Shown: positions 5,487-63,776 of the stretch, piece by piece
How positions within the stretch are numbered: position 1 is the stretch's first letter
How the letters are laid out: every line of letters starts with the position of its first letter
From: a bacterium
GTDB lineage: Bacteria; Bacillota; Clostridia; Lachnospirales; Lachnospiraceae
Assembly: GCA_963631525.1 (NCBI GenBank)
Contig: CAVGQQ010000002.1
Coordinates: forward strand, 35,843-99,842
Reading direction: 5' to 3'
Length of the DNA stretch: 64,000 nucleotides
Program-made: the position numbers and the translations under genes
Notes under the pieces: generated by a model
Told to the model about the DNA's origin: nothing
The model's database searches: none
Seen by the model: only the letters and a program-made list of their open reading frames with translations

Positions 5487-6158
5487 ATGAAATTAAAATT
5501 AGATTTTTCCAGTTTGTGGGCGTATCGGATGAGCTGGGTAAAAGGTCTTGAGAGCACATTACTGGTTACCTTGATTGCATTAGCGGTAGCAGTTGTAATC
5601 GCACTTGTTCTGGCTGCATTCCGCTTATCAAAGATTAAACCATTGAACTGGATTGCATCCATTTACCTGTCGATATTCCGAGGTGTACCGCAGATTGTAC
5701 AGATCATGTTCATCTATTTTGGTATCCCACAGTTAACCGGACATAAGTTTGCACCGTTTGTAGCGGGCTGGCTTGCACTCGGCTTAAATGCCGGTGCATT
5801 CATGTCCGAACTGTTAAGAGGTGGTATTCAAAGTGTTGATTATGGACAAAAAGAAGCGGCTGTTGCAATGGGAATGTCGGGGGCAAGGATACAGTTTGGT
5901 ATTGTGATTCCACAGGCAATCAAATCTATTTTGCCAGGACTGATCAATGAAGTAATTGCGCTGCTCAAGGGTTCTTCTTTGATCTATGCGATCGGTGCAG
6001 CAGAGCTGATGCGAAATACCCAGCTTGTTATATCGTCAACATTCCGAAGCTTTGAATGTTACATTATCATAGGTGTTATTTACTGGATATTGGTTACAAT
6101 TTTGACAACCATCGGCAGAAGAGTAGAAAGGTGGGTGAACAGAAGTGGTCAACGTTAA
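5487..6158 (+). CDS. Polar amino-acid ABC transporter permease
   Basis: [13 protein letters not shown] motif ([12 protein letters not shown]), LLKGSSL. Confidence 0.93.
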
Positions 6159-56021: not shown

Positions 56022-58262
56022 TTAAGGCTGTGTGACAGCATAATCCGAAAAGCTTGTGGTCGATTCGGCGTCACTTGTATCAACGGAGGTACTGTAGCTG
56101 TCGACGGTGATCGTATAGCTGCTTGTACCCTGTACATAGACTGTGCCATCGGTACCGACAATCGTAACGGTCTTGCCGCTTGCATCGGTGATCGTTCCGG
56201 CACAGTAGAGATTTGTCAGTGTGCTGTCTCCAGTTACTGTCCAGGTGCTTCCTTTTTCGATATAGACATTGCAGTAGCCGTCGCCGCCATTTCCGGCATA
56301 GGTCTCATCGTCGGTAATGGCACCTGTGAGTGTGCTTTCACCGGTCATGTAGAAATCAAGCTGGCTGATGGAATCCCAGATCACGTCGCCTTCCATAGCC
56401 TGATCGATGGCAGTGAATTTACAATCGGCACCGTTGGAACCGGAAGTTCCCCAGCCACGCTGGTTGTTGTTGCCGGTACAACGAAGGAAGAAGTCGTTGT
56501 CATCCGCATAGGTGATGTCTACATCATTTAAGATAAATGTGGACTCGGTATTGGTCGTGTAGAACATACCGCCATTTTTCGCAGTCAGGCTGCCGCCGTC
56601 CATCTCAAATGTACTGTTACCAACTTCTGAATCACCAGACATGCTCTGGTATAAAATCACATTCCAAGTGCAGTCGTTCTGACTGTCGTCTGACATATTT
56701 CCGGTCAGATCGGTATCAAACAAACGAAGTGAATTTAATCCCTCGATACAGACCGCTTCGGAACCATTTGCGGTAAGCGTTGCATCGTTGATGGCGATAT
56801 CAGCAGTGCTGTATACGGCAGGGGAACCCGTTCCGTTTGAGGTATAGGTTCCGCCATCGACAACCATCGTTCCGCCGCCACGATCGCTACGGATAGCGGC
56901 AGAGGAGTTACCGTCTGTCTCTACATTGAGATCCCATGCGTAGAGGGTTCCACCGCCAGCCGCGTGGATACCACCGGCTGTATTTCCGGTAGTCTTAATT
57001 GTGGAATCGGAGATGTAGACCGTACCGTCACCGTAGGCAAATGCGCCAGCAGCACCGTCGGCATCGGTTGTGATCGTACTGTTCGTAATCGTTGTCTGTC
57101 CGTCGGTTGTAAGGATTGCTGCACCGACACCATAGAAGCTGGAATTATCGCCGCCGCTGCTTTCTTCGGAAGATCTTGTGACGGTAATGTTATTCAGCTT
57201 TACATTTGCGCCATCGTACACATGGATGGCGTTTTCGTCGGTGCCTGTGGACTCAAATGTCTCGCCGTCCACGTCAGCATCGGTTGTATATTCCGAGACA
57301 GCATCGTAGCTTTCCACTCCACCGGAGTTTCCGCCGCCCGGCTGTCCCGGAGCACCTCCACCAGCATTTCCATTCGAAATCACAATGACGGTTACGGTTC
57401 CGCCATCATCGAAGGTTACCTGTATTGTGTCACCGACTTGGATATCTGTCAGGGATGCGTCGGTGGAAGTTGCCATGTCACCACCCGGAGCATTACCGGA
57501 AGGAGCTTCGCCGTCTGGCATTTCCGGAGGCGTGTTGCTGTCAGAATTGTTATCGGAATTGCTGTCACCAGACTGCCCACCGTTACCAGAAGGGGCTTCG
57601 CCATCTGGTTTCTCCGGAGGCGTGTTGCTGTCGGAACTGCTGTCATCAGACTGTCCGCCATTATCAGAAGGTGCTTCACCATCTGGTTTCTCCGGAGGCG
57701 TGTTGCTGTCGGAACTGCTGTCATCAGACTGTCCGCCATTATCAGAAGGTGCTTCACCATCTGGTTTCTCCGGAGGCGTGTTGCTGTCGGAACTGCTGTC
57801 ATCAGACTGTCCGCCATTATCAGAAGGAGCTTCGCCATTCGGCATTTCCGGAGGTGTGTTGCTGTCTGAACTGTTATCACCAGACTGTCCGCCGTTATCG
57901 GAAGGAGCTTCACCATCCGGCATCTCCGGTGGAGTATTGGAACTGTCATCGCCAGACATTTCTGGTGGCTGTCCCATGCCCTCGCGGGTAATCTCTACAT
58001 CATCATTTACGGTAAAGGAGATGTCATCCTCTTCGCCTTCCGGTGTCATGGAAATCGTATCACCATCAATCTCGGTTACCTCACCGGAGATTGTCTGTCC
58101 TGCATAGCTGTTTCCTTCCTTGACTGCCTCCGTCGGTGTTGCCTCACTGGTTGTTGTCGATTCTGTTTTATTTGCACATCCGCCAAGCAGGGCAGTTGCA
58201 AGCATCGTTACTGTTACAAGTGGTAAAATGGATTTTTTCTTCATAAAATCACGTCCTTTCAA
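56022..58262 (-). CDS. Lipoprotein with acidic Pro/Gly repeats and a C-terminal beta-helix (adhesin/carbohydrate-binding-like) domain
   Basis: Lipobox LGGC; SFYGVGAAIL, SAAIRSDRGGG, SPAVYST, WTVTGDSTLTNL beta-helix-type repeats. Confidence 0.75.
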   Translation of the reverse strand: MKGRDFMKKKSILPLVTVTMLATALLGGCANKTESTTTSEATPTEAVKEGNSYAGQTISGEVTEIDGDTISMTPEGEEDDISFTVNDDVEITREGMGQPPEMSGDDSSNTPPEMPDGEAPSDNGGQSGDNSSDSNTPPEMPNGEAPSDNGGQSDDSSSDSNTPPEKPDGEAPSDNGGQSDDSSSDSNTPPEKPDGEAPSDNGGQSDDSSSDSNTPPEKPDGEAPSGNGGQSGDSNSDNNSDSNTPPEMPDGEAPSGNAPGGDMATSTDASLTDIQVGDTIQVTFDDGGTVTVIVISNGNAGGGAPGQPGGGNSGGVESYDAVSEYTTDADVDGETFESTGTDENAIHVYDGANVKLNNITVTRSSEESSGGDNSSFYGVGAAILTTDGQTTITNSTITTDADGAAGAFAYGDGTVYISDSTIKTTGNTAGGIHAAGGGTLYAWDLNVETDGNSSAAIRSDRGGGTMVVDGGTYTSNGTGSPAVYSTADIAINDATLTANGSEAVCIEGLNSLRLFDTDLTGNMSDDSQNDCTWNVILYQSMSGDSEVGNSTFEMDGGSLTAKNGGMFYTTNTESTFILNDVDITYADDNDFFLRCTGNNNQRGWGTSGSNGADCKFTAIDQAMEGDVIWDSISQLDFYMTGESTLTGAITDDETYAGNGGDGYCNVYIEKGSTWTVTGDSTLTNLYCAGTITDASGKTVTIVGTDGTVYVQGTSSYTITVDSYSTSVDTSDAESTTSFSDYAVTQP
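57493..57932 (-). repeat. 78-bp coding tandem repeat, about 6 copies (PPEKPDGEAPSDNGGQSDDSSSDSNT)
   Basis: Central copies are near-identical at DNA level. Confidence 0.9.
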
Positions 58263-58290: not shown

Positions 58291-58325
58291 AGTATAGGGG
58301 ACGAACCTTAAATCAACCTTAGAAA
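58291..58325 (-). promoter_or_regulatory. Second TAAGGT-N5-TAAGGT box plus TATACT -10
   Basis: Reverse complement TTTCTAAGGTTGATTTAAGGTTCGTCCCCTATACT; 28/35 identical to 43981-44015. Confidence 0.7.
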
Positions 58326-58439
58326 TAAAATGTCGATAATAATTTCTTGTCTTTTTCAATGAAAAAAAATATACTTTTACCATAGAGGGAAAATTCGACA
58401 CCTTTATAGAATATGCGGATAGAGAATTGGAGGAATTGT

Positions 58440-60350
58440 ATGAAAAGATCATTTTTTAGAATATTATTTGCGTGTTTTATAGTTTTGCTGCTTGTACCTG
58501 TTGTGCGGGCAAGGGCTATGAGCATTTATATAGATCTGGCGATTATTGGCGAAGCGGATCTGACTTTGGAGGTTGAGTCAGGTGACAGCATTGATAATGT
58601 GAAACAGAAAATTCGGGATGCTGGAATTTCTACAGATGGAAAGTGTCTTTATTTTGGAGATATATTACTCGCAGACGGTCGTACTCTTGCAGACTATAAC
58701 ATTCAAAAACAAAGTAAACTGCGATTGTCAGATGAATTTGTGGTATCGGATGCTTCCGAATTATCCAATGCGGTTGATTCGGCTGCGGCGAAAATAAAAC
58801 TGATGTCAGATATAGAAATACCGACATGTATATTGATCAAAAGAACGGTTACGTTAGATCTCAATGGTTATGTTATGAAGGCGGACGGAAGTTGTAATGT
58901 AATCCAGATAGTGAGTGGGGGAAACCTGACGATTGTGGATGGAAATCCAACCTCAGAGCATACATTCCGTGAGAACAATGAAGGTTTATGGGTGATTGCT
59001 GCCGGTGGGAATAAGCTCGTTTATGGAGGTGTTATTACAGGAGGTAATTCCCCAGCCGGAGGCGGCGTGTATGTTGCAGAGGGAGGCACTTTCACCATGC
59101 AGGGTGGAAATATCGTTGGATGCAGCGCCAGAGAAGGCGGTGGTGTGTATGTAGAGGGAAGTTTTTCTATGTCAGGTGGAACGATTTCTGGGTGTCTTGC
59201 CAGAGCAGACAGGGACGATACAAGAGGTGGAGGTATTTGTAATTTTGGAAATACAACTTTGATTGCGACGGCGAAGATTCAAGGATGTCGTGCAATCGCA
59301 AGCGATGTGTATGGATTTGAAGGTGGAGGACTGTATAGTGTAAGAAACTTAATAATTTGTGATGAAGTGACGATTACCGGTTGTAAAGCGAATGAGTGGA
59401 ATAGATCCATGCAGGTTGGAAGCGATGGAAAAAATCAGATTTCAGGCGGCATATTCGACGATGGAGTTGAAATAGATTCAGGTGGAAATTTATCTGTGAC
59501 AGGCGGAATCTTCAATGGACCGGTAAGAAATAGAAATGTGATTTCAGATGGAATGTTTAATGATGTAGTAAATAATGATGGCACGATTTGCGGTGGTACA
59601 TTCAATGGAACGGTTACGAATGTAAAGGGGAGAAGTCATGGCATTATTTCAGGCGGCGTTTTCAATGCGCCTGTGATAAATGAAACGTGTATTCCAGAAC
59701 CAGAAAATACGCCGGGACAGATTTCGGGTGGAACGTTCAAAGGTGGGATTACCGGGGCGTATATTGTAACTTTTGACGCGGATGGAGGCACAGAATGTCC
59801 AGCGCAGGTGCTGGCAAATGTTCCAGCAAAAAAACCAGAAAATCCAACGAAAAATGGATATATTTTTGAAGGGTGGTACAGGAATGACGTGCCATATGAT
59901 TTTACGATACCTGTAACAGAATCGGTGACCTTAAAGGCAAGGTGGAAGATCTGTAATCATGCAGGAAGTGAAGTACAGCCAGATTGTACATCGTCAGCAG
60001 TCTGTACAATCTGTGGAGAGAAGTTTGACACACGGGAACATAGGAATCTTAAGCATTTTCCGGCGCAAACGGCTACGGTCAATGCAGAGGGAAATATTGA
60101 ATACTGGTATTGCAATGCATGTAATAGATATTATAGTGATGCGGCTGCAACGAAAGAAATTGGGAAAGCAGATACTATAATAAAGAAAACGGATGTAACA
60201 GAAAGAAATGTAACAGATGCGAACAATTCAGAGGGAAACAAAAGCCCGGATACTGGTGATTGCGATGTAATTGGGATGATGCTCTTGCTTCTTCTCAGCG
60301 GTTTGGGTGTGGTCAATATGGTAATCCAGCGGAAGAAGAATGAGAAATAG
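58440..60350 (+). CDS. Sortase-anchored surface protein: signal peptide, ubiquitin-like domain, beta-helix repeats, InlB B-repeat, Cys/His repeats, SPDTG sorting signal
   Basis: GGAGG SD before the ATG at 58440; signal peptide ending [33 protein letters not shown] repeats; VTFDADGG...[19 protein letters not shown] + TM + RKKNEK. Confidence 0.85.
58518..58727 (+). other. Eukaryote-like ubiquitin domain (70 aa)
   Basis: Manual alignment to ubiquitin residues 1-69 gives about 36 identities. Confidence 0.9.
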
Positions 60351-60357
60351 CAGCATT

Positions 60358-61383
60358 TTACTTCTCATCCTTCTTCCGTACTGCCAGTGCCGGAACCAGT
60401 CCGATCACGAAAGGTACGATCCATGTAAATAACCGGTAGACTACGAGGGCAGCAGCTACGGCATCGCCGTCCGGAATGACGCAGGCGAAGAACAACGCGA
60501 ATACAAAGTCCAGTGTACCGACACCGGATGGTGCCAGCATAACACAGCCAACCATGTTGCAGACGGCAGTAAGCCCCAGACAGGTTGCAACTGTAACAGA
60601 ATAACTTCCAGCAAAGAAGATTCCCGGAATTGCATACCAGCATGCGAATTTGAAGAAATCCAAGCCGACCACAGTCAGGAACAACCGCTTGTCTTTCCAT
60701 ACAAGACGTCCCTGATCCTGCAGATAGTCGATGGAAACCTGTGCCTTATCCAACAGCGGATACAGACGGTTCTTAGGTTTCACAAGCTTTCGTGCCAGTT
60801 TCATGATCAGGTCGGAGAATTTCTTTGAGACTGTTAATATAAATAAGAACAAGCAGATCAACGAAATCACAACTGCTCCGGCAAACATATACCATGCGTA
60901 TTTGCGGATGCCGCTGTGACCGCTCAGAATCAGAAGGATAAATGACACAACACCAAAGATTCCGATTGCGATTTTCTGGAATGTGTACTGTGCGATGGAC
61001 ATACCAGTTCCTGTGCTCACACGGATGCCATGCAGATTATAATAATAAAGCTGTGCGACACCGGTTCCGCTTCCAAGTGTTGCAATCCGGTAAAATGTAC
61101 ACAGATATGCGCAGGTGATTCCCTGCCATACAGATAAGCGATGGTCGCAGGTGTTCGTCATTGCACTGATGATGCAGCCCTCGGCGATGAAATACAGATT
61201 TCCAAGCAGCAGACACACGATCAGCTTCCATACAGGCGTTATCTGGATTTCTTCCATGGCTTCCTGCATCAGATCCTGATTTTTATAGCATACAAAAGCA
61301 ATCAGCGCAAAAATTACCAACCATTTTGCGATGCTTTTCAATATTGTTTTCTGACTTTTATCTGCCTGCTTTGTAACTTCCAT
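60358..61383 (-). CDS. Lysylphosphatidylglycerol synthase TM / flippase-like (UPF0104) membrane protein
   Basis: ATLGSGTG..QLYY, APSGVGTLD, YRLFTW; many TM helices. Confidence 0.82.
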   Translation of the reverse strand: MEVTKQADKSQKTILKSIAKWLVIFALIAFVCYKNQDLMQEAMEEIQITPVWKLIVCLLLGNLYFIAEGCIISAMTNTCDHRLSVWQGITCAYLCTFYRIATLGSGTGVAQLYYYNLHGIRVSTGTGMSIAQYTFQKIAIGIFGVVSFILLILSGHSGIRKYAWYMFAGAVVISLICLFLFILTVSKKFSDLIMKLARKLVKPKNRLYPLLDKAQVSIDYLQDQGRLVWKDKRLFLTVVGLDFFKFACWYAIPGIFFAGSYSVTVATCLGLTAVCNMVGCVMLAPSGVGTLDFVFALFFACVIPDGDAVAAALVVYRLFTWIVPFVIGLVPALAVRKKDEK

Positions 61384-62106: not shown

Positions 62107-62205
62107 ATGTGGATTTATGAAAAGAGACTTCAATGTCCTGTGAATATCAAGGAGACAAATGCGAAGCTGGCGCAGGCGATAATTTCACAATACGGCGGTC
62201 TGTAG
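62107..62205 (+). pseudogene. cotJC: 5' fragment of cotJC (manganese catalase family) interrupted by an integrated element
   Basis: MWIYEKRLQCPVNIKETNAKLAQAIISQYGG then L-stop, where the family continues QYGG-PDGEL. Confidence 0.88.
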
Positions 62206-62220
62206 ACGTTTGCTAATGGG
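62178..62220 (+). other. Putative att junction (host arm - GGCGGTC core - element arm)
   Basis: CotJC similarity ends at 62200; the element arm TGTAGACGTTTGCTAATGGG is echoed at 62287-62305. Confidence 0.7.
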
Positions 62221-62321
62221 TATGTTTTTTATCCGCATTTTTAGCGGAATCAAATTTCACCCATATGCGAATATGTATCGACCGCCATAGACAATTACTA
62301 ATGGGAACTTATTTATTCTTG

Positions 62322-63776
62322 TTATGGGATAAAGAAGAACTCCATTGTATCAGCTTCTTTGTCGTAAACAATGTGATCCACGATTGAATTGATCGCTGCC
62401 GCTTTCTCTGCATCGGTTTTGGCATTAACAATTGCATCATGCACTGTATTGACGACATCCGGCGTGACAGTTGTATGTTGTTTGGCATGTTTAGCTTCTG
62501 AAACCGATAATTCCTTTAAGTGCGTGATTTCAGCTTCTAATTTTTCTTTATTTGCTTTATATTCCTCCAACGTATCGATACCATTTACGTAAGCTTCTTT
62601 TACACGACCAAGCTTCGCCTTGACGCTTGCGATCTGTTTTGCAATCGTTGCTTCATCTTGGCTAAACGGTATGATTGGTGCTATTGTTTTAATGCTTTTA
62701 TTTTCTATCACATTTAATAATCCGTCAACAACATATTGTTCTGCCTTGCTTACTAAAATGCTGTTTCTTGTTGTACACATACCCTTGACATAACGATAGC
62801 AGACGAAACTAGGATATGTTCGACCTGATTTTGATGCAGGACCTCTTTGATATGCAAGGGAACCTCCGCACATAGGACATTTCAAAAGACCGGAGAGCCA
62901 ATGCCGGTGAATATCAGTTCTTTTTTTATGAGTATATGCATACTTGGATGTTATTTCGGCGTATCTATTTTGTGCTGCATTCCACAAATCTTGAGATATA
63001 AGTGGGGGATGCTTGCCGTCGCGAATGATTTCTTCTCCGACATGAGGGGTAGTGCGTCGGCTGGTCGAGCTGTTCCAACGAATTTTTCCAATATAAAACG
63101 GATTTTGAATCATATCCGTAATATTTCGGCTTTCCCACCGGTTACCATGCCGTGTACGATATCCAAGCGAATTGATTGTTGATGCAATGTTTGTTATAGA
63201 AGCATGCTCTATAGCGAACATGTAAAAGCAGCGTTGAACCATGACCGCATAATAGTCGTCGATTTGAGGGATTGTATCGGGACCCCGTTCCTTTATATAT
63301 CCAATTGGAACATTTGAATTATATCCACCCTGGAGGGCTTTCTGAGCCATACCACGTCGGACTTCTTCAGATAGCCGAATAGAATAGTATTCGTCCATCC
63401 ATTCAAATATTCGTTCAATCAGTTTGCCAACGGGTCCATCCGGAAGTGGCTCGGAAACGGATATAACATCTACATGGTTCTTTTTCAGTAAGGACTTATA
63501 GACGATTGATTCTTCTTGATTTCTTGCGAACCGGGAAAACTTCCACACCAAAATGGCATCGTAGGGATGTTCCTTGGATTTTGCCATAGCAATCATTTCT
63601 TTGAAATGTGGACGTATTTTCACAAATTTTCCGGATGTTCCGAGATCTTGATAGATATCGACAACGATCATGTCGTGAGCTGCAGCATACTCTTTGAGAA
63701 GTCGGATCTGGGCTTCCGGCGAGTATTCTTCTTGTGAATCCGTAGAAACTCTGATATACAAGCATACAGTTTTCAT
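62322..63776 (-). CDS. Large serine recombinase (integrase)
   Basis: YIRVSTDSQ (catalytic Ser), D.GTSG, VWKFSRFARN, NPFYIG, HPPLIS, LSGLLKCPMCG zinc ribbon, coiled coil. Confidence 0.96.
   Translation of the reverse strand: MKTVCLYIRVSTDSQEEYSPEAQIRLLKEYAAAHDMIVVDIYQDLGTSGKFVKIRPHFKEMIAMAKSKEHPYDAILVWKFSRFARNQEESIVYKSLLKKNHVDVISVSEPLPDGPVGKLIERIFEWMDEYYSIRLSEEVRRGMAQKALQGGYNSNVPIGYIKERGPDTIPQIDDYYAVMVQRCFYMFAIEHASITNIASTINSLGYRTRHGNRWESRNITDMIQNPFYIGKIRWNSSTSRRTTPHVGEEIIRDGKHPPLISQDLWNAAQNRYAEITSKYAYTHKKRTDIHRHWLSGLLKCPMCGGSLAYQRGPASKSGRTYPSFVCYRYVKGMCTTRNSILVSKAEQYVVDGLLNVIENKSIKTIAPIIPFSQDEATIAKQIASVKAKLGRVKEAYVNGIDTLEEYKANKEKLEAEITHLKELSVSEAKHAKQHTTVTPDVVNTVHDAIVNAKTDAEKAAAINSIVDHIVYDKEADTMEFFFIP

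Follow-up and report, generated by a model that had tools for sequence, protein, structure and literature searches.

A eukaryote-type ubiquitin domain at the head of a stalked, putatively wall-anchored surface protein of a gut-type Lachnospiraceae bacterium, and its counterparts in other bacterial phyla

Introduction

Why should a spore-forming, gut-type bacterium carry, at the head of a predicted surface protein, a ubiquitin domain, which is treated as a hallmark of eukaryotes? The question is raised by a single gene in a 64,000-nucleotide stretch of DNA (hereafter the window; contig CAVGQQ010000002.1 of assembly GCA_963631525.1, positions 35,843 to 99,842 of the forward strand) from a member of the family Lachnospiraceae. 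The gene (58440..60350, + strand, in window coordinates) specifies a product of 636 amino acids (aa), whose parts follow one another in the order Sec-type leader, ubiquitin, beta-solenoid stalk, one Flg_new/InlB-B repeat, Cys/His module, and a sorting signal made of SPDTG, a transmembrane segment and a basic tail. The original prediction, made without database searches, had read it as a eukaryote-like ubiquitin at the tip of a sortase-anchored surface protein. We ask here whether the domain is a ubiquitin, whether the fusion is authentic, how widely such proteins occur, and what a displayed ubiquitin might be for.

Results

Residues 1-71 of the predicted mature protein (58518..58730, + strand) constitute a eukaryote-type ubiquitin domain without the Gly-Gly tail, as judged by Pfam, by comparison with the Protein Data Bank (PDB), by AlphaFold2 (AF2) modelling and by Foldseek. 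The Pfam family PF00240 scored 36.0 bits with the whole protein and 41.1 bits with the 70-residue piece alone, against a cut-off of 25.4, and a scan of genomes with the hidden Markov model (HMM) of this family gave 40.3 bits for the same domain. Mono-ubiquitin was found by phmmer among all PDB sequences (E 2e-14, 56 bits), with 33 of 58 aligned residues identical; compared with a fungal-type ubiquitin unit from the stored protein P0023, 39 of the 71 aligned positions were identical, in good agreement with the roughly 36 matches in 69 positions that had been counted by hand. For the domain alone, an AF2 model based on an alignment of 37 rows reached a mean predicted local distance difference test score (pLDDT) of 87.1 and showed the order beta-beta-alpha-beta-beta-3(10)-beta. 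When this model was compared with the PDB by Foldseek, the top 50 matches listed were all ubiquitin, with a template-modelling score of 0.80-0.85 in 49 of the 50 and root-mean-square deviations of 1.1-2.9 A, and the full-length AF2 model led again to ubiquitin matches. A homologue search with residues 30-170 was dominated by eukaryotic polyubiquitins, the protein's own cluster being P0111; no NCBIfam model covered the ubiquitin tip. The domain is thus a true eukaryote-type ubiquitin, with a beta-grasp superposable on ubiquitin, and not a ThiS/MoaD-like fold. This is what the original prediction had claimed, and both the Pfam search and the AlphaFold model that it had proposed as checks speak in its favour.

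Alignments to PDB ubiquitin and to the P0023 unit (ubiquitin numbering) showed that K27, K29 and K63 are kept, that K6 is replaced by D, R42 by C, I44 by Y, K48 by I, H68 by R and V70 by S, and that K33 is deleted, with a beta1-beta2 loop 2 residues longer than in ubiquitin and a remodelled L8 loop. Neither the canonical L8/I44/H68/V70 patch nor the full set of chain-forming lysines is present, K6, K33 and K48 being lost. LRGG is absent as well, and the chain (...KLRLSDEF...) runs on into the stalk without Gly-Gly. Because Gly-Gly is missing and the last strand continues straight into the stalk, the domain is non-conjugatable; lacking LRGG, it can be neither activated by E1 enzymes nor released by deubiquitinases. 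Within the stalk family of the window protein, as represented by an alignment of 53 sequences, Y4 and Y44 are invariant, position 68 is Q, R or W and position 70 is T or S, the L8/I44/H68/V70 patch of this gut subfamily being replaced by loop / Y / Q,R,W / T,S. Position 48 is K in 33 sequences, R in 19 and I in one, the Ile being private to the window sequence. Most of what had been predicted at this level was borne out, namely the retention of K27, K29 and K63, Tyr at 44 and Arg at 68, a remodelled I44 patch (Y44 being invariant in the family), and the replacement of the LRGG tail by an in-frame stalk fusion; the change of K48 to Ile is correct for the window sequence but is a singleton (1/53) and not a family trait. 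The invariant face of the family is made up of the alpha1 helix and the 52-64 loop. Since the hydrophobic patch is replaced and conservation has settled on this other face, the putative partner of the gut stalk family is probably not a classical ubiquitin-binding domain.

As regards the leader, the frame 58413..60350 (+ strand) is open throughout, and the true start is taken to be the ATG at 58440, because a Shine-Dalgarno sequence (GGAGG, 58429..58433, + strand, read from the sequence 6 nt 5' of this ATG) precedes it and the cluster representative P0111 (636 aa) begins MKRS. Inspection of the first 26 aa (58440..58517, + strand) revealed a Sec-type signal peptide, with a basic n-region (MKRSFFR), a 15-residue hydrophobic core and an RARA c-region carrying Ala at -3 and -1. 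The residue that follows the predicted junction (ARA/M, at 58518) aligns to Met1 of ubiquitin, so that ubiquitin residue 1 stands directly after the predicted signal-peptidase site, where cleavage would expose exactly the Met1 equivalent, as had been proposed.

Behind the tip, the beta-solenoid stalk (58731..59747, + strand), composed of GGG/ISGGxF-type repeats, appears in the full-length AF2 model as short strands at residues 127-445, with pLDDT values of 58-93 for blocks of 10 residues and a whole-model mean of 66.5, which is mediocre. In this model a single strand (residues 101-111) leads from beta5 of ubiquitin into the stalk, with no linker in between. Foldseek with the full-length model gave no stalk match better than the ubiquitin matches, and the start of the stalk resembles a 'pectate lyase-like adhesive domain' (Pectate_lyase_5, 14.2 bits, below its cut-off of 24.3), a suggestion which an Atlas match repeats and which serves as a lead only. 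The stalk is followed by a Flg_new / Listeria-Bacteroides (InlB B-type) repeat (59760..59939, + strand), for which PF09479 matched residues 450-509 (E 4.5e-14, 52.8 bits against a cut-off of 27) and TIGR02543 scored 31 bits against a cut-off of 20.95. Next comes a Cys/His-rich module (59949..60167, + strand), conserved in the 53-sequence alignment, with conserved columns at residues 514-570 and invariant C514, C525, C531, C534, H543, C567 and C570; no Pfam family reached its cut-off here. The protein ends in a sortase-type sorting signal (60243..60350, + strand) consisting of SPDTG, a hydrophobic stretch of about 17 residues, RKKNEK and the stop. Its own genome holds 3 sortase genes (PF04203 above cut-off) and 4 other open reading frames (ORFs) with a TGD motif, a transmembrane segment and a basic tail (SPQTGD in 2, VPKTGD and LPQTGD); given the SPDTG signal, the three sortase genes and the four like substrates, sortase anchoring is plausible. 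All the downstream parts that the original prediction had named, from the beta-helix repeats and the InlB B-repeat to the Cys/His repeats and the SPDTG signal, could thus be located.

The fusion of ubiquitin to this stalk recurs well beyond the window. When 5.8 billion proteins were searched with the stalk only (residues 106-600), PF00240 was present also in 119 of the 120 best homologues. Fifteen of the 121 sequences, query included, are of the protein's own 636-aa type with SPDTG, and about 105 are of an 827-972-aa type, with junctions such as AHA/MPIY and a C-terminal transmembrane anchor instead of the sortase motif. A contig of 5889 nt from an independent run spans 58300-60387 gap-free, and contigs of two further runs bridge the leader/ubiquitin/stalk borders. 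All the aligned runs consist of contigs, and no RNA run was listed for the gene; run labels such as gut or feces come from runs with a small share of it, which may contain relatives, and were left out as evidence of habitat. The one-contig genome G009, of the same genus, has an orthologue 94% identical in the ubiquitin domain, at a locus that is syntenic at about 92% nucleotide identity. Chimeric assembly at the domain borders, the danger to which the original prediction had pointed, is therefore not the case, as independent contigs cross every border and nearly all stalk homologues carry the domain.

A peptide-pattern and tblastn scan of one genome per prokaryote species yielded 56 loci with a ubiquitin domain, most of them found via the peptide IDNVKQKI. 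By a crude rule (hydrophobic leader plus small-x-small junction), 44 of the 56 loci have such a leader and junction immediately before ubiquitin residue 1, and about 10 have no leader; Pfam was run on 30 of the loci, with PF00240 above cut-off in all of them (30/30). A query-independent scan with the PF00240 HMM found 3 positives, own genome included, among 400 evenly drawn genomes of the class, and none among 14 control genomes; the 3 further ORFs in the two other positive genomes all have a leader directly before Met1. A search with the domain of the window protein gave matches in 3 of 36 further genomes within the genus and in none of 24 drawn from other families of the order.

Proteins with a predicted signal peptide followed by ubiquitin are accordingly found in Bacillota, Proteobacteria, Bacteroidota and Actinobacteria, each with an anchor typical of its lineage to judge from the motifs. 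Partners in gut Bacillota are Flg_new, CHB_HEX_C, choline-binding repeats and CBM_X2, with tails of the (S/N)P(K/Q)TGD type; on a complete Paenibacillus chromosome (L027) the partners are an SLH anchor and an Ig-like domain. An autotransporter beta-domain, with ubiquitin as the sole globular passenger, is seen in four loci (L019, L021, L044 and L058), an IPTL-CTERM anchor in two (L025 and L031), and a tail of the type IX secretion system (T9SS) in L047. Actinobacterial forms carry Ig-like modules and LPXTG-like tails, leucine-rich repeats are among the downstream partners in the Pfam-scanned loci, and three proteins (L018, L033 and L037) are stand-alone, with leader and ubiquitin. The original prediction, which had presented the window protein as a Firmicute-type case, was right as to a Bacillota protein with a predicted anchor, but the protein is no Firmicute oddity: it is one case of a cross-phylum architecture.

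Several variants of this design were recorded. The leader-then-ubiquitin order is not universal, for in G020, of the same genus, the domain is internal rather than at the mature N-terminus: there, a 1221-aa frame (L067, around local position 5687) contains a weak ubiquitin-like domain, with 41% identity and E 3e-5, placed behind a Flg_new repeat. Four actinobacterial forms (L041, L042, L045 and L052) lack a leader and begin at the ubiquitin Met; the part C-terminal to the domain measures 130-300 aa and contains Big_3_5 in L052. Such forms may represent a cytoplasmic or differently exported branch. In nine proteobacterial loci (L021, L024, L025, L026, L028, L031, L032, L038 and L051) the leader is preceded by a conserved segment some 20 residues long, …I(T/Q)S…G(M/F)(V/T)F(K/T/R)S…, which may represent either an enlarged signal region or in-frame reading of an upstream element. 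Finally, in G071 (L061, 1240-2381) two tandem genes each encode a leader, a near-canonical ubiquitin and an unannotated domain of about 85-95 aa, with no anchor; these ubiquitins still end in LRLRG/LRLRN, and the proportion of synonymous differences (pS) between the two is 0.48.

The age of these domains was assessed on 38 canonical-length bacterial domains. Their G+C content at third codon positions (GC3) ranges from 0.10 to 0.93 and tracks that of the locus (r 0.98, 35 loci). The pS was at least 0.6 in 609 of 703 pairs, values which serve only to show synonymous saturation, and not as dN/dS, the Nei-Gojobori script giving pS > 1 for some pairs of opposite codon bias; the median proportion of non-synonymous differences (pN) was 0.128. 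Saturation at synonymous sites alongside so little change in the protein argues for strong purifying selection, and this, together with the adaptation of GC3 to the hosts, indicates that the domains are old bacterial residents and not recent contaminants. Many lineages of the wider set keep L8, I44, H68 and V70, and many non-gut members are 80-93% identical to ubiquitin (58-67 of 72 residues). In the alignment of 53 stalk-family sequences, conservation is highest at the ubiquitin tip, where median identity to the window protein is 63%, followed by the stalk (54%), the Flg_new repeat (48%), the Cys module (40%) and the leader (33%).

There are hints, in the form of best-scoring matches that are leads and not a phylogeny, of several separate donors of bacterial ubiquitin. 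One of the G071 copies (L061) scored best in the PDB against the ubiquitin of Entamoeba histolytica (4gu2; 137.2 bits against 130.8 for the canonical form), and the G122 copy against chain 5xy3_m, 'Ubiquitin, putative' (108.3 against 103.5 bits), from an entry which we take to be the Trichomonas ribosome. Separately, a eukaryote-type Ub-S27a fusion gene (L022, 482-940) was seen on a 3.4-kb contig in a Lachnospiraceae metagenome-assembled genome (MAG), with a GC3 of 0.75 in a locus of 45% GC, and is a probable eukaryotic contamination. Its ubiquitin has the same G20/S22/Q28 changes as the tips of gut Bacillota, a possible clue to the donor lineage of the latter.

At its locus, the whole gene together with its upstream region forms a 2-kb presence/absence cassette (58326..60355, no strand assigned), as delimited by blastn of the flanks and by junction alignment, with a left breakpoint at about 58326 common to the relatives compared. 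The cassette is present in its own genome and in G009; at the same site there are some 43 bp in G017, whose flanks are 90-96% identical, and some 126 bp in G028, from which the neighbouring lipoprotein gene is missing as well. A different cassette of 6.9 kb (L070, 1706-8579), encoding a response regulator, a histidine kinase, a lipoprotein, an ABC ATPase and a large permease, occupies the site in G460, which marks this intergenic site as a hot spot of accessory cassettes. For the ubiquitin cassette, an origin as a mobile element was considered and rejected, because inspection of the junction revealed neither repeats nor an integrase nor att-like features. A scan of the gene region found 0 terminators, and 9 promoter-like sites against 5.7 +/- 2.2 in shuffled sequence, a difference that is not informative.

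The gene lies among serine dehydratase genes, a lipoprotein gene, an LPG_synthase_TM gene (60358-61383, - strand) and cotJA/cotJB; neither E1 nor E2 nor JAB genes adjoin the gene in its own flanks. The divergent lipoprotein gene (56022-58262, - strand) has an LLGGC lipobox, no Pfam match, about five tandem 26-aa Pro/Asp/Ser-rich repeats, the number of which varies among relatives, and a Gly/Thr-rich C-terminal part of beta type. Among other loci, a TetR-family gene lies directly upstream only in two gut Bacillota (L009, 3216-3908; L011, 3304-3909), and further Flg_new surface-protein genes adjoin the ubiquitin gene in L009, L014 and L059. Towards the end of the window (62109-63776), cotJC, which follows cotJA/cotJB directly and begins at 62109, stops short at about 62200, where foreign DNA takes over, including a large serine recombinase gene (62322-63776, - strand; Resolvase, Recombinase and Zn_ribbon_recom). 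Synteny with four relatives stops at 62198-62200, and G009 has a 213-aa ORF at the place of cotJC; the arrangement has the appearance of a sporulation gene interrupted by an intervening element of the skin type. The recombinase belongs to this separate insertion and not to the ubiquitin cassette.

Discussion

We propose that the stalk, made of the beta-solenoid, the Flg_new repeat and the Cys module, would hold a non-conjugatable ubiquitin away from the wall, at the distal N-terminal tip, and that this tip would be a binding or mimicry module for a partner on another cell, be it of a host, a protist or another bacterium. That the displayed domain acts as such a putative binding or mimicry tip has, in our estimation, an even chance of being true. 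The stalks are unrelated and five anchoring systems are in use, with ubiquitin alone common to all and in some cases the sole passenger; this suggests that the display of ubiquitin is the selected trait. The common denominator of the wider set would be a ubiquitin exported and retained at the surface.

Several points weigh against this proposal. Cleavage of the leader at ARA|M is predicted, and attachment to the wall by sortase is plausible, on the strength of motifs. The 56-locus count and the IDNVKQKI signature are both ascertainment-biased, because most loci were found via that very peptide. The gene is dispensable, being absent from its site in three close relatives, with 3 of the 400 class genomes positive, and no conserved partner-type neighbour emerged from 89 flanking ORFs of 18 loci, or from its own flanks. 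Lastly, the strand at residues 101-111 that joins ubiquitin to the stalk, taken with the lost I44 patch, fits a structural cap equally well.

A broader version of our proposal, which we regard as doubtful, is that surface display of authentic ubiquitin may be a widespread and repeatedly assembled bacterial strategy (at least five anchors, hints of separate protist acquisitions, and strong purifying selection that keeps the domain near to ubiquitin), engaging the ubiquitin-recognising machinery of eukaryotic hosts or grazers. If true, such engagement could redirect the handling of the bacterium after uptake or serve adhesion, and the gut stalk family to which the window protein belongs would represent a derived lineage that has changed to a new partner.

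The tip might instead be a structural cap or folding aid, that is, a stable, fast-folding N-terminal plug which nucleates or protects the end of the beta-solenoid and has no ligand of its own. Besides the linkerless passage of one modelled strand from beta5 into the stalk and the loss of the classical binding patch in the gut subfamily, this explanation can appeal to eukaryotes, which fuse ubiquitin N-terminally to ribosomal proteins (the Ub-S27a gene of L022 is an example). We nevertheless consider it unlikely: elsewhere ubiquitin is the sole autotransporter passenger, or stands directly before a T9SS- or PEP-type anchor, so that there is nothing to cap, and the folds downstream of it (Ig-like, leucine-rich repeat, choline-binding and CHB_HEX_C) are unrelated. 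Nor would a cap be expected to be the most conserved part of the protein, or to retain an exposed L8/I44/H68/V70 in many lineages despite saturated synonymous change.

A second explanation takes its model from Bacteroides, whose ubiquitins BfUbb and BoUbb, leader-bearing and Gly-Gly-less, kill related Bacteroides by way of import through ButCD and of a peptidyl-prolyl isomerase (PPIase) in the periplasm, according to excerpts of PMC11467351 and PMC5705921; the window tip, released or on contact, would likewise poison competitors through an essential envelope protein. The existence of stand-alone leader-plus-ubiquitin forms (L018, L033 and L037) and the strain- and species-variable nature of the cassette, as is often seen with weapons, are in keeping with such antagonism, which we hold to be quite improbable, as the domain is continuous with a 535-aa anchored stalk with no evident processing site, and no immunity-like gene adjoins it in its own flanks or is conserved across the 18 loci. 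Moreover, neither the carrier nor its likely competitors possess an outer membrane, and such monoderm competitors lack a TonB/SusCD import route.

Camouflage or immune mimicry, by which the cell would be coated with a conserved eukaryotic self-antigen and so blunt host antibodies or grazers, is in our view very unlikely. Anti-ubiquitin antibodies bind BfUbb, in connection with which antigenic mimicry has come under discussion (excerpts of PMC3352274 and PMC6194340), and the 80-93% identity of many non-gut members to ubiquitin would suit this role; the window protein, however, is among the most diverged members (39/71), hence a poor mimic of a self epitope, and many carriers are, to judge by their record titles, free-living bacteria of fresh water, soil or the sea, which are never exposed to antibodies. 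As for eukaryotic contamination or a chimeric assembly having joined a ubiquitin gene to a bacterial surface-protein gene, contamination does occur in such collections, as the bacterial MAG with L022 illustrates, but this explanation is refuted beyond reasonable doubt by the same architecture in homologues from many assemblies and in the one-contig G009, by the same design on the complete Paenibacillus chromosome, by the independent contigs across every domain border, and by a GC3 that fits the bacterial host.

With ubiquitin built into predicted surface proteins of at least four phyla, its export by bacteria turns from a one-species curiosity into a general question, and one that can be tested by experiment, since natural knock-outs exist (relatives without exactly this cassette) and the reagents are simple. 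Should the partner prove eukaryotic, a new class of host- or grazer-interaction factor would be at hand in commensals and environmental bacteria; should it prove bacterial, antagonism of the BfUbb type would be widened beyond Bacteroides.

In 2018 B. fragilis was called the 'only bacterium known' with ubiquitin (excerpt of PMC6194340), and B. ovatus was added in 2024. No fusion of ubiquitin to an anchored surface protein was found in the open literature, subscription journals and supplements lying outside this scope, as do the top 100 bacterial BfUbb matches of PMC11467351; only stand-alone BfUbb/BoUbb were met there (portions of PMC3352274, PMC3463472, PMC5705921 and PMC11467351). The portions seen of beta-grasp and toxin surveys (PMC1949818, PMC1779556, PMC3482391) and of PMC9704523 and PMC12617251 likewise hold no anchored ubiquitin fusion. 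In databases, these proteins are unnamed or carry the automatic names 'hypothetical protein' or 'InlB B-repeat-containing'. Cross-phylum surface display of ubiquitin is thus apparently undescribed so far.

Of the known systems, the Bil/Bub and ThiS/MoaD-type Ubl conjugation operons resemble the window protein in placing a beta-grasp fold in a bacterium, but they are cytoplasmic, have a C-terminal Gly and E1/E2/JAB neighbours, and are only remotely similar to ubiquitin, none of which is true of the window protein. Eukaryotic ubiquitin and its Ub-S27a and Ub-L40 fusions belong to the same PF00240 family and share the fold, 39/71 identical positions and a head-first fusion; the window domain differs from them by a leader for export, the lack of LRGG, the changes at K6, K33, K48 and the I44 patch, and the absence of a nearby E1/E2/E3. 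The sortase-anchored, internalin-like Flg_new/InlB-B adhesins of Bacillota have in common with it a leader, a modular beta-rich stalk, a Flg_new repeat, a sorting signal and a functional end at the distal N-terminus; here, that distal domain is ubiquitin and not of leucine-rich-repeat or lectin type, and the motif is SPDTG and not LPXTG.

The nearest relatives in kind are BfUbb/BUbb of B. fragilis and B. ovatus. BfUbb has a 28-residue leader directly before ubiquitin (excerpt of PMC3352274), and is a released ubiquitin homologue that is imported by ButCD and hits a periplasmic PPIase (excerpt of PMC11467351). Common to these proteins and that of the window are a eukaryote-type ubiquitin in a gut bacterium, a leader directly before the domain, the loss of Gly-Gly and the status of an accessory gene that part of the strains carry. 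By its published description, on which this comparison is based, BfUbb is a free protein of about 76 aa that ends in Cys and is released (in outer-membrane vesicles or the supernatant), whereas the window domain, to which some 540 residues with a terminal sorting signal are joined, forms the tip of a 610-aa mature protein with a wall-anchor motif of Gram-positive type. The window protein thereby extends the known secreted ubiquitin of bacteria to a stalked form with a predicted wall anchor.

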